Shown: positions 11,080 through 55,245 of the stretch, piece after piece | Numbering within the stretch: the first letter of the stretch is position 1 | How the letters are laid out: each line of letters starts with the position of its first letter | Assembly: GCA_964387865.1 (NCBI GenBank) | Contig: CAYLXC010000001.1 | Span: 50,597-114,596, forward strand | Length of the DNA stretch: 64,000 bases | Source: an uncultured Gammaproteobacteria bacterium | GTDB lineage: Bacteria > Patescibacteriota > Microgenomatia > Daviesbacterales > UBA10151 | Reading direction: 5' to 3' | Made by a program: the position numbers and the translations under genes | The notes under the pieces: model-generated | The model's input: only the letters and a program-made list of their open reading frames with translations | What the model was told of the DNA's origin: nothing | The model's database searches: none

Positions 11080-11124
11080 TACTTAAAAACTAGATGAATG
11101 CATAATAGCAGTTTAAATCCAATC

Positions 11125-11153
11125 TTGACAAGGATTGAATTAGCTGATATATT
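11125..11153 (+). promoter_or_regulatory. sigma70-like promoter (TTGACA - 17 nt - TATATT)
   Basis: Consensus -35 hexamer at 11125-11130 and -10 hexamer at 11148-11153. An ATG follows 7 nt downstream. Confidence 0.5.
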
Positions 11154-11160
11154 ATCTTTT

Positions 11161-11208
11161 ATGCAAAACCTAAGAAGATATTTTAATTTCTTCTTTACCT
11201 TCGCTTAA
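11161..11208 (+). CDS. putative 15-aa Phe-rich leader peptide MQNLRRYFNFFFTFA
   Basis: Near-leaderless ORF directly after the promoter. Its stop codon sits at the base of hairpin A. The composition (FNFFFTF) resembles E. coli pheL ([15 protein letters not shown]). Confidence 0.35.
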   Translation: MQNLRRYFNFFFTFA

Positions 11209-11277
11209 ACGGAGGTTGGTTTTTGTGTAAAAAAACCAACATAACTTAACCTCCGTTTATAAGTGGAGGTTTTTTTT
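11207..11277 (+). promoter_or_regulatory. attenuator-like leader unit 1: hairpin A (aaacggaggtt...aacctccgttt) and alternative terminator B (acctcc..ggaggt + T8) whose 3' arm is the SD for the ATG at 11278
   Basis: Direct reading: 'ggaggt' (11211-11216), 'acctcc' (11249-11254), 'ggaggt' (11265-11270), 'tttttttt', then ATG. Confidence 0.5.
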
Positions 11278-11520
11278 ATGGAGAAAAGAAAGGAAGGTGA
11301 AAAAATGGTAGAAAGAATAATTGTAAAACCCGAATATCCCGAACAAAAAGGTATTACTCGGGCTTTAGCTGATCTTGATCGAATTCAAGTAGATATTAGA
11401 GGAAGAATGATTGGTTCAGAGCCAGTCGCACAGACAGGATCATCAAGTTTACAAACTAGAGTAAAAATATCACTAGAATATCCAGATCCTACTGAACGAA
11501 AACCATATTTCGTTCGCTAA
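11278..11520 (+). CDS. hypothetical small protein (80 aa from ATG 11278; table ORF starts at GTG 11263)
   Basis: SD GGAGGT lies 8 nt upstream of ATG 11278. The product has no recognised motif. Confidence 0.45.
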   Translation: MEKRKEGEKMVERIIVKPEYPEQKGITRALADLDRIQVDIRGRMIGSEPVAQTGSSSLQTRVKISLEYPDPTERKPYFVR

Positions 11521-11522
11521 AC

Positions 11523-11552
11523 TTGACAAAATACATAAACTGCCCTTATAAT
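11523..11552 (+). promoter_or_regulatory. sigma70-like promoter (TTGACA - 18 nt - TATAAT)
   Basis: Consensus hexamers at 11523-11528 and 11547-11552. An ATG follows 11 nt downstream. Confidence 0.5.
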
Positions 11553-11563
11553 TTAAATAGTCT

Positions 11564-11668
11564 ATGTCAAAAGTTGAAGTAATTGATTTAAGAAAAGTAG
11601 AAGTTATTCTTGGCCTCCTTATTTTAGTGCTCGTTACGGGCACTTTTTTGGGAGGTCTTTTTAGGTAA
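11564..11668 (+). CDS. putative 34-aa Leu/Val/Ile-rich leader peptide MSKVEVIDLRKVEVILGLLILVLVTGTFLGGLFR
   Basis: It starts right after the promoter. Its last codons (gggaggtcttttt) form the 5' arm of hairpin A of unit 2. Branched-chain residues (L8, V6, I3) are enriched, as in leu/ilv leader peptides. Confidence 0.35.
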   Translation: MSKVEVIDLRKVEVILGLLILVLVTGTFLGGLFR

Positions 11669-11720
11669 AAAATAACCTAAAAAAGAAAGTAATCAGACCT
11701 CCCTAACGGGAGGTTTTTTA
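11650..11720 (+). promoter_or_regulatory. attenuator-like leader unit 2: hairpin A (gggaggtct...agacctccc) and terminator B (cctccc-taac-gggagg + T6) that contains the SD of the next gene
   Basis: Direct reading of the sequence. Terminator B is a 6-bp GC stem with a 4-nt loop and a U6 tract, immediately followed by start codon TTG 11721. Confidence 0.5.
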
Positions 11721-12011
11721 TTGGGAAAAAATATGAGTGAAAGATTTAGACCAGATACAATACATAGAAGGGCCTATAAAATAGCCTCAGAAACCTTTGC
11801 GAATGTCGAAAGTTTAACTGATGAACAAGTAGGAGTAGTAGAAAATGACAGAAGAGGTAGAAGAAGAATGATCCATTCATTACAGCAAAGTCTGAAGGAA
11901 ACTTCAGGAGAAGAACGAAGACGGTTACTTGAGCAGTTACATGATCTGGAATCGCATCAATTCGCATCAAGATATGCAATCGAAAAACGTTCAGGTAAAA
12001 GATTTTTTTAA
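11721..12011 (+). CDS. hypothetical small basic protein (96 aa, Arg-rich)
   Basis: The ORF follows SD GGGAGGT at optimal spacing from start TTG 11721. No recognised domain. Confidence 0.45.
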   Translation: MGKNMSERFRPDTIHRRAYKIASETFANVESLTDEQVGVVENDRRGRRRMIHSLQQSLKETSGEERRRLLEQLHDLESHQFASRYAIEKRSGKRFF

Positions 12012-12041
12012 TATAACGAAAGAAAGGGGGTGTTTAAATTT

Positions 12042-12248
12042 ATGACAGAACGTGGAGAAATACCTGTTGAACAGCGTGGAATCTTGAATTCAACCATGGA
12101 GCCAGGAGATGTGGCATTCGGGACATTGGATATATACTACAATCCCGGCCCTGACAAAAGCGTGCCAAATTCAGAAGATGGAAATGGAACTGTACGTGAT
12201 CCTGAACCAGTAGAAGTAGTCACAGATATACGCGGTGTACCTTTTTAA
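12042..12248 (+). CDS. hypothetical small protein (68 aa from ATG 12042; table ORF starts at 12030)
   Basis: SD AAGGGGGTG lies 7 nt upstream of ATG 12042. Confidence 0.35.
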   Translation: MTERGEIPVEQRGILNSTMEPGDVAFGTLDIYYNPGPDKSVPNSEDGNGTVRDPEPVEVVTDIRGVPF

Positions 12249-12291: not shown

Positions 12292-12378
12292 ATGTATTCC
12301 ATATGCATACTAAAGCTGAAATTATTATTGGAATTATTATTACTTCTAAAAAGGGAGGTTGTTTGGCGTAAGTCTTAA
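12292..12378 (+). CDS. putative 28-aa Leu-rich leader peptide MYSICILKLKLLLELLLLLKREVVWRKS
   Basis: Ten Leu including LLLELLLLL. The ORF ends inside the 5' arm of hairpin A of unit 3. It is preceded by a weak TTGCAC-17-TAGCAT promoter-like pair. Confidence 0.4.
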   Translation: MYSICILKLKLLLELLLLLKREVVWRKS

Positions 12379-12431
12379 AAAAAGATTCCGCAACAAACCT
12401 CCTGAAAGGGAGGTTTTTTAATGAGAAAAAT
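12348..12431 (+). promoter_or_regulatory. attenuator-like leader unit 3 upstream of the cimA/leuA-family gene: hairpin A (gggaggttgtttggcg...cgcaacaaacctcc), terminator B (acctcc-tgaaag-ggaggt + T6), and an 8-codon uORF (ATG 12421, MRKIWQKL) overlapping the cimA start
   Basis: Direct reading of the sequence. SD GGGAGGT (12408-12414) is optimally spaced for ATG 12421. The cimA ATG at 12432 is in another frame. Confidence 0.5.
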
Positions 12432-14003
12432 ATGGCAGAAACTTTAAAAATAGTACCTTACGATACAACGTTAAGAGATGGTGCTCAGGATGCAAGGGCT
12501 AGACTCTCTGTAAAGAAGAAACTAAAAATTGCTCAAAGATTGGACCAACTTAGGTTCCCCTTTATAGAAGGTGGTTGGCCTGGGGCAAATGAAATTGATA
12601 CAGAATTTTTTAGACAAGCAAGAGGTATGTTTGAGAATAGCCAGTTTGTTGCGTTCGGAATGACCGCAAGAATCGGTGGCAGACCTGAAAACGACGATGG
12701 GCTAAATGCACTTCTTGAGTCTGGAACAAATTTCATCACTATTTTCGGAAAAACATGGGAGACTCATGTCCAAAATGCGTTAAGAGCACCCAGCTATAAG
12801 AACTTGGATACTATTTTCGAAAGTGTTCGCTTTCTAAAAGCTGAAGGACGAGAGGTAATATTTGATGCAGAACACTGGTTTAGTGGTTATAGAGAAAATC
12901 CAGATTATGCTCTTGAATGTTTAGAAGCAGCAGAAGCTGCTGGTGCCAGAACACTAGTTCTTTGTGATACCAATGGAGGCAGTAATCATAGATTTGTAGA
13001 AAGTGGGGTTAAAGCAGCGAGAAGTAGATTTCCAGATACAGAGTTGGGGATCCATGTACATAACGACAGTGCTCTAGCGGTTATTAACACAATCGTTGCA
13101 GTAGAAGCAGGAGTAATACAGGTTCAAGGGACTATTAACGGCTCCGGAGAAAGGGCAGGAAATGTGGATCTGTGCCAAGTATTGCCAACAGCAGAATTTA
13201 AATATGAAATACCTAGCGGTATAGATTTGAGAACTTTAACTAAAGCATCTCGCTTTGTTGAAAGTATAAACGAGATACCTGTACCGGATAATACTCCATA
13301 TGTTGGCAGAAATGCGTTTGCCCACAAGGGAGGAGTACATCAATCCGGCCAGAGGCGAGCTGATAAAAGGCAAGCGAGTGATGAGGCGGCATATGAACAT
13401 ATAGAACCAGCTTTAGTAGGAAATAAGAGAATTTATATTATGTCAGAACAAGGCGGGTCGACAAATATAGAGATTATGGCAGAAAAGCATGGATTTCAAG
13501 TTGACAGAACTGATCCATTATTTACCTTACTCGTTGAAAAAATGAAGCAAAAAGGTATTTTTGGAGATGCACAGGAGTATCTCCTGCTCTATGAAACTTT
13601 AACAAATGAACAAATACCTTTTGATGTTTTAGAAAGCCGTGTTGTAGACGAACGGGGTAGAGATCCTGAAGCTAGCATTAGAGTGCGGGTAAATGGCGAC
13701 ACTCTACATGAAGCTAATTTAGGCAAAGGTCTTATAAATGCTTTTGATAATGCTTTAAGAAAAGCTTTATTACAAAAGTATAAGGAAGTTGCAGACATAA
13801 CACTTGTTCCAGGAAGTTATAGAGTTACACTTCCCATGGGGGATAGTGATTCAGCTGCTGAAGTGGAAGTATACGCTGAGTTTGCCGCAGATGGCCAACA
13901 ATGGAGTTCACGTGTTCGCGGAACGGATCAACAACGTGCCGGAGAAGATACTTTTATCCAGGCTTACCAATATTACATTTTAAGAAGGCGTTCAGGTTTC
14001 TAA
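12432..14003 (+). CDS. cimA: (R)-citramalate synthase / 2-isopropylmalate synthase family protein (DRE-TIM metallolyase with C-terminal LeuA-dimer regulatory domain)
   Basis: N-terminal DTTLRDGAQ hallmark, HxH metal site (IHVHND), 523 aa with a C-terminal regulatory domain typical of CimA/LeuA. Composition is GC-richer than the flanking genes. Confidence 0.8.
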   Translation: MAETLKIVPYDTTLRDGAQDARARLSVKKKLKIAQRLDQLRFPFIEGGWPGANEIDTEFFRQARGMFENSQFVAFGMTARIGGRPENDDGLNALLESGTNFITIFGKTWETHVQNALRAPSYKNLDTIFESVRFLKAEGREVIFDAEHWFSGYRENPDYALECLEAAEAAGARTLVLCDTNGGSNHRFVESGVKAARSRFPDTELGIHVHNDSALAVINTIVAVEAGVIQVQGTINGSGERAGNVDLCQVLPTAEFKYEIPSGIDLRTLTKASRFVESINEIPVPDNTPYVGRNAFAHKGGVHQSGQRRADKRQASDEAAYEHIEPALVGNKRIYIMSEQGGSTNIEIMAEKHGFQVDRTDPLFTLLVEKMKQKGIFGDAQEYLLLYETLTNEQIPFDVLESRVVDERGRDPEASIRVRVNGDTLHEANLGKGLINAFDNALRKALLQKYKEVADITLVPGSYRVTLPMGDSDSAAEVEVYAEFAADGQQWSSRVRGTDQQRAGEDTFIQAYQYYILRRRSGF

Positions 14004-15574
14004 ATCCTAATATCTTTCACCTTAAGCTGTAATTTTTCAAAGCCATTAAAATCATCCAGCTCTAGATTATATGCAATATCTATTTGCCGCCCGTTCTGCA
14101 GCATATTTTCCAGCTCCCCCATGCCAAAGGCGATTGTATCCAGTCCAGAGGTCTTAAATTTTAGATGTTTTCCCTGCCCTACTGTCCTTAAATCCGAAAT
14201 TTGCATCCCGTATGTTGCAAATACAGGTCTTGGATTTCCAAAACCGTGAGGCTCAAACTTTTTTAATTCTTTAACCAAATCCAATTTTAATTTTTCATAG
14301 TCAATTTCCGCATCTATATTTAACACCTTTTCATTCTCTTCCAATTCCAACTTAACTTCCTCCATTCTTTTTTTAAAAATATTTATATGTTTAGTTAAAA
14401 TTGAAAAACCTGCTGCACCCGGATGACCCCCAACATCAACCAAGATATCCGCGTGTTTTCTTATAAGCTCTACTATATTTATTCCATTAATTGACCTTGC
14501 TGACCCTTTTGAAATACTCTCTCCAACAGAAATTGCAATTGCGGGACGATAAAATTCTTCTGTAATCCTTCCGGCAACAAGTCCGATTATCCCTGGTGAC
14601 CAGCTTTTGCTGTATAGAACATGAATCAAGTTCTCCTGAACAATTAACTTTTTTGCCTCCTCTAATGCATTAATTGTCATTTGTTGCCTGGTAGTATTTG
14701 TGTCAGAAAGCAATTTGGAAAGTTTTCTTGCTTTTACTGGATCTTTTGTGCAAAGAAGTCTTAAAGAATCTATTGCATGCTCAAGCCTTCCCATGGCATT
14801 TATTCTTGGCCCCAGAATATGACCTATTTCATATGATGAGATATTGCCAAAACTAAGTCCTGACTCATTCATTAAAGATAAAAGTCCAATATTTGTAGTT
14901 TTATTTAAAATTCTTAACCCCTCCACCGTAAACGCTCTACCCAGACTAACAAGGGGTAATAAATCACAAACAGTTGCTATTGCTGCAAATTGTAATAATT
15001 CATTTGCCAAATCTTTTTTAATAAGTCCACGGATTAAACACCATCCAACAGCTGCCCCGCACATTTTTGTGGAATGCACTATTGCAAATGAATCCGGCTT
15101 TTCATCAAGTGGAATATGATGATCGGTTATTATTAAATCCAACCCCAATTCTTTTGCATATTTCGCCTGCTCTATAGCAGTTATTCCATTATCTACAGTA
15201 ATCACAACAGTAGCTCCGGAATCTCTGGCAAACTCCAAACCCAATCTTGACAACCCATATCCTTCTTTTTCCCTATGAGGAATATAGGGCAATACTTTTG
15301 CGCCTATTGATGTTAAAGCTTTATACAAAATTGCACATCCGCAAATCCCGTCAACATCATAATCCCCAAAAACTATAATCTGTTCATTATTTTCTATAGC
15401 TTCCAGGATTCTTTTTTGTCCCTTTTCAATACCGGGTATTTCTAGATCCTTATCATAATCAGAAAGCTTTGGATGAAGAAATTGATCCTTTTCTATATCA
15501 GTTTTTATACCGCGGTTTATTAGAAGCTGCTCAGCTAAATCATCGCTTTTCTTTGGTAATACTTTCCATTTCAT
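14000..15574 (-). CDS. recJ: single-stranded-DNA-specific exonuclease RecJ (DHH/DHHA1)
   Basis: DHH-family motifs (DYDVDG, ITVDNG, IITDHH) and a C-terminal DHHA1 region with a GG motif. Confidence 0.85.
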   Translation of the reverse strand: MKWKVLPKKSDDLAEQLLINRGIKTDIEKDQFLHPKLSDYDKDLEIPGIEKGQKRILEAIENNEQIIVFGDYDVDGICGCAILYKALTSIGAKVLPYIPHREKEGYGLSRLGLEFARDSGATVVITVDNGITAIEQAKYAKELGLDLIITDHHIPLDEKPDSFAIVHSTKMCGAAVGWCLIRGLIKKDLANELLQFAAIATVCDLLPLVSLGRAFTVEGLRILNKTTNIGLLSLMNESGLSFGNISSYEIGHILGPRINAMGRLEHAIDSLRLLCTKDPVKARKLSKLLSDTNTTRQQMTINALEEAKKLIVQENLIHVLYSKSWSPGIIGLVAGRITEEFYRPAIAISVGESISKGSARSINGINIVELIRKHADILVDVGGHPGAAGFSILTKHINIFKKRMEEVKLELEENEKVLNIDAEIDYEKLKLDLVKELKKFEPHGFGNPRPVFATYGMQISDLRTVGQGKHLKFKTSGLDTIAFGMGELENMLQNGRQIDIAYNLELDDFNGFEKLQLKVKDIRI

Positions 15575-54715: not shown

Positions 54716-55245
54716 TTAGACAAATTTGATCTTAATCTTTTCTGGATTGCATCCACCTCCCCCACCCCATCTATTTCAACTAATATTCCCTTATTTTTGT
54801 AGTATTCAAGTAATGGTTGCGTTTGCAGATAATAAAGTCCCAACCTTGTTCTGATTAATTCTTCGCTGTCATCTTCCCTGCCTCTTTTTAAAAGCCTTTC
54901 TAACACCACATCTTCCGCTACTTTTAAATAAAATACTTTATTAAAATTTGGATCAAAAGTTTTAAGCTGTACAATATTTCTGGGATAACCATCCATAATA
55001 AAACCGTTCTTGCAATCCTCCTTCTTTAACCTTTCCTGAACTATCTTGGATGTTGTCTCATCATTAATAAGTCTACCTTCATCCAAAATCTGCTTTACAC
55101 TTTTACCCTGATCTGTGTCCTGATTTGACAAATTTCTAAAAATATCTCCTGTACTTACAAGGGGAACTTTTAGAAATTGCGATAATAATTTTGCCTGAGT
55201 GGACTTACCCGATCCCTGAGAACCAATAAGTAGTACTTTTGTCAT
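54712..55245 (-). CDS. adk: adenylate kinase (short form without zinc lid)
   Basis: P-loop [10 protein letters not shown]. Confidence 0.85.

Follow-up and report, generated by a model that had tools for sequence, protein, structure and literature searches.

Leader-peptide attenuation is classic biology, and the locus studied here raises the question of whether a short, phenylalanine-rich ORF belongs to such a switch and, if so, what the switch controls. The ORF lies upstream of an 80-aa protein (ORF80) in the window, the whole 64-kb stretch of DNA that was analysed. From sequence analysis we consider it likely that positions 11125-11277 form a leader-peptide attenuator reading charged tRNA-Phe, that its operon was lost here, and that the intact switch gates ORF80.

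Promoter, leader ORF and RNA switch

The features of the locus, all on the + strand, were as follows.

11125-11153, +: sigma-70-type promoter, -35 TTGACA (11125-11130), -10 TATATT (11148-11153), 11/12 matches
11161-11208, +: leader peptide ORF, 15 codons plus TAA, product MQNLRRYFNFFFTFA, with homologues in eight related loci
11179-11202, +: regulatory codon run, UAU UUU AAU UUC UUC UUU ACC UUC
11197-11203, +: region 1, ACCUUCG, inside the short ORF (sORF)
11210-11217, +: region 2, CGGAGGUU, a Shine-Dalgarno (SD)-like decoy whose partner is region 1 or region 3
11217-11238, +: central hairpin, UGGUUUUU GUGUAA AAAAACCA, enclosed in the 2:3 helix
11248-11257, +: region 3, AACCUCCGUU, anti-SD-like, given more narrowly as AACCUCCG (11248-11255)
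11262-11277, +: region 4, AGUGGAGGUU, with the U8 tract; 3' arm of an intrinsic terminator, given more narrowly as UGGAGGUU (11264-11271)
11278-11520, +: ORF80, 80 aa (243 nt), the sole ORF between the attenuator and the promoter P2 (11523-11552)

The leader ORF ran from an ATG at 11161 to a TAA at 11206-11208; the original prediction had the ORF and its peptide right, as read directly from the sequence. Its count of six Phe and one Tyr was one Phe too high: MQNLRRYFNFFFTFA contains five Phe (positions 8, 10, 11, 12 and 14) and one Tyr. The regulatory codons specify Tyr7, Phe8, Asn9, Phe10, Phe11, Phe12, Thr13 and Phe14. The promoter had a 17-nt spacer with a TG extension (11146-11147) preceding the -10 box. 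Only 7 nt without an SD separated the -10 box TATATT from the ATG at 11161, indicating that the leader sORF is probably leaderless. The 5' end of the leader mRNA probably lies at or adjoining the AUG, judging from the promoter alone. The -10 to AUG spacing was 6-12 nt in the six relatives measured, again without an upstream SD.

The 125 nt from the ATG at 11161 folded at -40.5 kcal/mol (z = -5.6), and none of 200 shuffles was as good. Region 1, which comprises Thr13, Phe14 and the first base of Ala15, paired with region 2 in a 7-bp hairpin (11197-11216, -8.5 kcal/mol), the anti-antiterminator. Region 2 begins 2 nt past the leader stop codon, inside the footprint of a terminating ribosome. Region 3 can pair with region 2 (antiterminator) or with region 4 (terminator). 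The 2:3 helix with the central hairpin reached -17.1 kcal/mol in the window and -18 to -25 kcal/mol in relatives; a hairpin was kept at the central position in all relatives, with unrelated sequences. The terminator consisted of a 10-bp stem (11248-11271) with a loop of 4, followed by TTTTTTTT, and its 3:4 pairing was worth -10.2 kcal/mol. The U8 tract ended one base 5' of the next ATG (11278). Region 4 also contains a GGAGG SD (11265-11269), 8 nt 5' of the ORF80 ATG at 11278, so that the terminator hides the ribosome-binding site too.

The helices 1:2, 2:3 and 3:4 are mutually exclusive in the window element. Region 1 lies in the sORF just past the regulatory codons, an intrinsic terminator separates the sORF from the gene that follows, and the codon run is aromatic in all eight related leaders. 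Promoter, sORF, three helices and U tract have the classical geometry, which is consistent with the Phe-tRNA-sensing attenuator originally proposed.

When a ribosome footprint was masked at Phe11 in equilibrium folding of the window RNA, the 2:3 antiterminator formed; when it was masked at the leader stop codon, the terminator formed. The free RNA adopted a long 1+2:3+4 hairpin that extended as far as the U tract. With the footprint at Phe14, the thermodynamic model already predicted the terminator, so a clear preference for read-through was seen only for stalls from Phe8 to Phe12.

The proposed mechanism is as follows. The strong promoter would yield an mRNA starting at or beside the AUG of the 15-codon ORF. 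When charged Phe-tRNA is scarce, the ribosome would stall at Phe10-12, and probably at Phe8, a stall at Phe14 being ambiguous. The stalled ribosome would hide region 1 (ACCUUCG), and region 2 (CGGAGGU) would pair with region 3 (ACCUCCG). With 2:3 formed there would be no terminator, RNA polymerase would enter ORF80, and the SD in region 4 would be exposed. When Phe-tRNA is plentiful, the ribosome would reach the UAA, two bases 5' of region 2, and cover region 2; 3:4 would then pair and transcription would end in the U8 tract. Without a ribosome, either 1:2 plus 3:4 or the long 1+2:3+4 hairpin would form, leading to termination as well.

The Phe content of the leader does not carry this reading. 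The window contained 912 ATG sORFs with lengths of 8-45 codons, of which only the leader ORF (a longer in-frame version was counted as the same sORF) had five or more Phe within eight residues; block shuffles gave a mean of 0.57 such sORFs per window. The composition of the leader ORF in this T-rich DNA was therefore not significant by itself, as would be expected of a chance ORF in a T-rich stretch. What makes the ORF non-random is its context: the promoter, the fold, the terminator with its U8 tract and the homologous sORFs in relatives. The sequestration of the ORF80 SD in the 3:4 hairpin, which has a parallel in erm/cat leaders, would fit a translational attenuator of that type that senses a drug. 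However, the U8 tract 3' of this hairpin indicates transcription termination.

Orthologous aromatic leaders and sister attenuators

ORF80 was present only on three contigs, with identical protein, and loci were therefore compared via their flanking genes. In one Ca. Daviesbacteria locus (L017, JACPEZ010000010), the genes for GluRS (-), a 325-aa protein (+), an S11 peptidase (-) and AspRS (-) were ordered as in the window. The L017 promoter read TTGACA-17-TAAAAT, its sORF MLKEFNFGYFAFTFRKEGGY began 6 nt on, and its switch consisted of ACCUUCC / GGGAGGUU / AGCCUCCC / GGGAGGCU plus a U tract. This leader preceded a nine-gene aro operon in the order DAHP synthase, aroB, aroA, aroDE, aroK, aroC, chorismate mutase, aminotransferase and a tyrA-pheA fusion. 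Directly 3' of the operon was a homologue of the sORF2 leader that starts at 11564 in the window. The shared gene order places the window Phe unit where L017 has the leader of its nine-gene operon: as there, it is divergent from AspRS and 5' of an sORF2-type leader.

Homologous aromatic-rich sORFs were found in eight loci (L017, L014, L018, L098, L100, L101, L102 and L103). The absence or Phe-poverty of the ORF in orthologous loci would have spoken against the original prediction; it was present and aromatic-rich in L017 and the seven other relatives. Six of them (L018, L098 and L100-L103) had an aromatic-rich leader and the same switch before DAHP synthase, with the following leader peptides.

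L018: MSKAACYFWFAYFNPQREEVC
L098: MNIVSQNSFWFYFYFATRREVLT
L100: MNISHQVNYFRFEYFTPKREVC
L101: MKQTSQTNYFWFYFTPQMEVC
L102: MNISQVNYFWFTYFTPLREAS
L103: MNIFNQSYFWFNYFNSSKGDVC

Comparison shows, at the level of sequence, that the window element is an orthologue of the leader of a DAHP-synthase-led operon in related Ca. Daviesbacteria (CPR, Microgenomates). The genome behind the window is of CPR/Microgenomates type, and its citramalate synthase was 59-61% identical to Ca. Daviesbacteria proteins. Scanning metagenomes with DAHP synthase yielded a single close relative, L018; the other 79 were distant, at ~45% identity. Other types of Tyr/Phe-rich sORF, e.g., ...SLYYSYTYYGRS and MITLNPNFNFTGYYYYAGRYYIQRY, were observed upstream of DAHP synthase in low-GC metagenomic lineages (L022/L023, L030, L033/L034 and L038/L039); none matched the covariance model R1 described below, and they may be independent aromatic leaders.

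All three helices (1:2, 2:3 and 3:4) were present in 7/7 loci folded. Pairs were counted from a table anchored on the GGAGG / CCUCC cores, as MAFFT alignments misplaced regions 1 and 3 of the window. The cores themselves were invariant owing to their double role as SD and anti-SD. Beside them, 2:3 had an inner pair that was C-G in the window, G-U in L100 and G-C in L014, L017 and L098; that of 3:4 was U-G, G-C or A-U across loci. The first outer pair was A-U, G-U or G-C and the second A-U or G-C. This apparent covariation of flanking pairs, in few sequences, is supportive, not conclusive. Footprint-mask folding distinguished the states in the window and in L018. In L017 and L098 the states were not separated and the terminator won in every one, as is expected if the decision is kinetic.

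The covariance model R1 was built from six leaders of other genomes, with the window sequence left out. It scored the window Phe unit at 37.0 bits (E = 7e-5 for 64 kb, both strands). Four matches in the window exceeded 30 bits, each a promoter-sORF-terminator unit, and the next best reached 19.7 bits; the three sister units scored 54.6, 39.9 and 39.9 bits. Over 94 other loci, R1 matched solely those of Daviesbacteria type. The motif CCTCC-N(3-14)-GGAGGTTTT occurred four times in the window against 0.01 expected, each occurrence being one of the four units. The three further units of the same design were as follows.

11523-11716, +: P2 unit; promoter 11523-11552 (12/12), sORF2 of 34 aa 11564-11668, terminator 11695-11716, then ORF92 and ORF68
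12303-12431, +: Ile unit; Ile-rich leader MHTKAEIIIGIIITSKKGGCLA (12303-12371) with a GGAGG / CCUCC / GGAGG-U switch, adjoining cimA
49116-48945, -: fourth unit; TTGACA-17-TACAAT promoter, sORF MKILNDNFSCAYWYLSSGRFIPVV, same switch plus U tract

The Ile leader was the best R1 match in the window (54.6 bits). Directly 3' of it lies the citramalate synthase gene cimA (12432-14003), whose product catalyses the first step in making isoleucine from pyruvate. Homologues of this leader were found in L014 (MKIARQIFVIIIDHPLGRIG) and L003/L017 (MSKQRAQIIIEIIIASPKGGLLR). In relatives, Leu-rich leaders (...NKLLLGLLLALLLGAFLGGSF and MSKTIVYSFRNTENLLGLLLLALLLGAFLGRSF) stood before leuA-like genes (L011 886-1065; L003 4263-4430); the window had no leuA of the kind that follows them. 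The fourth unit precedes a 162-aa protein with no domain (48944-48456) and then an MFS transporter (48456-47164), and could be a leader-controlled uptake system; its sORF contains one Phe, two Tyr and one Trp.

The sORF2 peptide MSKVEVIDLRKVEVILGLLILVLVTGTFLGGLFR was conserved in L003/L017, L011 and L014. By eye, the pairing of its internal hairpin (11626-11644) was kept with different sequences in L011 and L014, and the 3' end of sORF2 (GGGAGGUC) was able to pair with the 5' arm of the terminator. This sORF may act as an attenuator of BCAA type; alternatively, it may encode a small membrane peptide that serves as a leader as well. ORF92 was homologous to a 114-aa protein of L014. Two further observations concern the window at large: its + strand is asymmetric (G 14.8%, C 20.8%), and cimA (end 14003) and recJ (14000-15574, -) overlap by 4 nt, tail to tail.

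Nine loci kept the aromatic run although their DNA had diverged beyond the reach of blastn, and 7/9 precede aromatic pathway genes. This retention argues against both a chance ORF and a drug sensor, as do the sister attenuators that these genomes also contain, with Ile runs preceding cimA and Leu runs preceding leuA. We regard a chance or drug-sensing ORF as the least probable reading of all.

ORF80 and the fate of the operon

ORF80 may start at 11278, using the SD in region 4, or in frame at 11305 with an SD of its own (71 aa). No terminator was found 3' of ORF80, and P2 begins 3 nt past its stop codon. A 14/16-nt match 5' of the P2 -35 box (CGCTAAACTTGACAAA vs CGCTTGACTTGACAAA), noted by eye, was too short to count. 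The product had been described as lacking a recognisable domain, which is correct for Pfam, NCBIfam, PHROG and PDB, where it had no match. It had also been said not to be a Phe biosynthesis enzyme, and ORF80 carried neither a PheA nor a PheRS domain. The homologues that the original prediction had proposed to look for did not appear: a word-indexed search of 5.8 billion proteins returned nothing apart from identical copies of ORF80 itself. An exhaustive HMMER search of 1.84 billion representative proteins gave weak matches only, to the repeat proteins P0242-P0244. Residues 19-73 of ORF80 were 27% identical to each of the six ~90-aa repeats of P0242, an unannotated 533-aa metagenomic protein (E = 4e-8 over its full length; about 6e-4 for a single repeat by BLASTP). 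These scores were inflated by six near-identical repeats, and P0242-P0244 were therefore not counted as homologues; the P0242 similarity, the only one found, is probably not meaningful.

No aro gene was matched when the nine L017 aro proteins were compared with the 64-kb window by tblastn. The sole weak exception was a P-loop kinase match (54775-55239) with 27% identity to AroK. The same comparison against 11100-11600 returned noise only, and ORF80 was rejected as an aro gene remnant. The aro operon could lie elsewhere in the genome, outside the window. We infer that the operon was lost from this locus and that the switch now gates a Phe-poor orphan of 80 (or 71) aa.

The main rival is that the element is a recent relic, the leftover of a deleted aro operon with no present role, ORF80 being a chance or young ORF in the gap; its parts would then appear intact solely because the deletion is recent. 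The missing aro genes agree with this, as do the ORFan status of ORF80 in both protein sets and the poor single-sequence AF2 model (pLDDT 57). Reductive evolution of CPR genomes, in which amino-acid pathways are commonly lacking (PMC7143001), points the same way. However, strong divergence from L017 and L014 has left the near-consensus promoter, the ORF and each of the three helices intact, and against these two loci the central hairpin differs and the inner pair is compensated. ORF80 also scored as a gene in its frame: its codon usage scored 0.48, where real genes scored 0.38 +/- 0.13 and the off-frame value was -0.87; no ORF in a set of 34 spurious ones equalled it. A second locus with the same arrangement (L014, below) also speaks against a relic, which we consider unlikely.

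L014 (CAZKAW010000017) is syntenic with the window but has no Phe unit beside AspRS. Its leader MNISRQTWFSFFYFTFQKEGGLK, a close homologue of the L017 leader with the same regions 1-4, is located elsewhere, between cimA and recJ; the ORF 3' of it encodes a 99-aa orphan and has an SD of its own. Smith-Waterman comparison of this orphan with ORF80 scored below the shuffle mean, and a relationship between the two was rejected. There was 1 Phe in the 80 residues of ORF80 and none in the 99 of the L014 orphan, compared with a proteome level of 5.8%; Ile+Leu+Val were near normal in both. The pattern was reversed in seven small proteins behind BCAA-type leaders, which were Ile/Leu/Val-poor (Fisher p = 0.0045). 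Proteins 3' of sORF2-type leaders (L011 411-871; L017 15529-15937; L014 5559-5903; window 11733-12248) included cases with 5/67 and 4/59 Ile+Leu+Val against 26.5% in the proteome, with no depletion of Phe. These compositions are suggestive, in that Phe-poor orphans fit proteins intended for times of shortage of the cognate amino acid, and starvation-induced small proteins may avoid it. The argument is weak by itself, since 4/41 small gene-like ORFs of the window were equally Phe-poor and the set of proteins compared includes homologous pairs.

A minor rival is that the element makes a trans-acting product, either the leader RNA left by termination or the 15-aa peptide, which would explain the survival of the element without its operon. 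The trp attenuator of Sinorhizobium, with rnTrpL and peTrpL, provides a precedent (PMC6614838, PMC7298713), and a strong promoter with an efficient-looking terminator would yield an abundant RNA of ~117 nt. By contrast, the peptide outside the aromatic run was not conserved among relatives, and the conserved RNA parts are those that a cis switch needs. A trans-acting product therefore appears very improbable.

Our preferred reading is that the switch is still functional and that ORF80 would be induced under Phe limitation. This is the weakest part of our explanation, held with moderate confidence; all switch parts are intact, and L014 independently pairs a homologous leader with another orphan. 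More tentatively, CPR bacteria lacking aromatic synthesis may have kept the aromatic attenuator and rewired it to small, lineage-specific Phe-free proteins, with the same modular attenuator extended to other amino acids. If true, an auxotrophic episymbiont would here have a dedicated output for phenylalanine starvation, one that arose at least twice (in the window genome and in L014). The four switches in 64 kb share the SD/anti-SD module, and runs match targets (Ile with cimA; in relatives, Leu with leuA and aromatic with aro). More broadly, one modular attenuator with exchangeable runs (Phe/aromatic, Ile, Leu and BCAA-type) may thus drive cognate-depleted small proteins. The Phe unit would be a sensor that outlived its operon, either as a datable trace of pathway loss in genome reduction or through re-use for orphans. 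Such sORFs and small proteins are mostly unannotated or hypothetical, and R1 could find them systematically.

Comparison with known systems

The window leader matches the pheL peptide of the E. coli and gamma-proteobacterial pheL-pheA (and pheST) systems in its 15 codons, its internal Phe run and its end ...FTF-x. Both elements also have a pause/anti-antiterminator, an antiterminator and a terminator hairpin followed by a U tract. By analogy, the window element is proposed to share the sensing of charged tRNA-Phe through ribosome stalling. The shared 'FTF' arises because ACC-UUC is region 1, which is required to pair with GGAGGU of region 2. In the summary of the pheL mechanism in PMC3082878, an SD is described 5' of pheL, whereas the window leader has none and is probably leaderless. 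Unlike in pheL, regions 2, 3 and 4 of the window element are built from SD and anti-SD sequences (GGAGG / CCUCC), and the terminator is itself an SD:anti-SD pair, by which the next gene would be gated jointly at the transcriptional and translational levels. A further difference from pheL is that relatives of the window leader drive a DAHP-synthase-led nine-gene aro operon and carry mixed Phe/Tyr/Trp runs.

The Rfam family model RF01859 (Phe_leader) had no match at its gathering threshold in the whole window. In a 1.4-kb search it gave the window element 29.3 bits (E = 0.018), below the gathering threshold of 55 bits. Its scores for the Ile leader (28.6 bits) and for the sORF2 unit (27.7 bits) were similar, showing that the match reflects a generic attenuator shape. 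Members of RF01859 stand before pheA or pheST, whereas the relatives of the window leader have DAHP synthase first. The resemblance to pheL originally proposed thus stands as an analogy of mechanism but not as membership of the family.

Leaderless polycysteine sORF attenuators have been reported in mycobacteria (bioRxiv 10.1101/834739). They share with the window leader a richness in a single amino acid and, as proposed here, the role of a cis sensor for downstream genes, and they provide a precedent for its probable leaderless start, which is deduced from promoter spacing. They differ from it in phylum, amino acid and output mechanism. Literature text searches returned no description of leader-peptide attenuation for the Candidate Phyla Radiation, and a Microgenomates genome paper uses 'leader peptide' for bacteriocin precursors only. 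The Daviesbacteria-type aro leader, without a description in the literature searched, is defined here.

The window element shares with these Daviesbacteria leaders (L017, L018, L098 and L100-L103) the Y/F-x-F-x-F/Y-F-T core, regions 1-4 and the U tract. The promoter-to-AUG layout is also common to them, as is, in L017, the position divergent from AspRS. It differs from them in that the leader stop codon lies 5' of region 2 in the window and 3' of it in the relatives, the terminator has a longer loop, the run consists almost entirely of Phe, and ORF80 replaces the operon.
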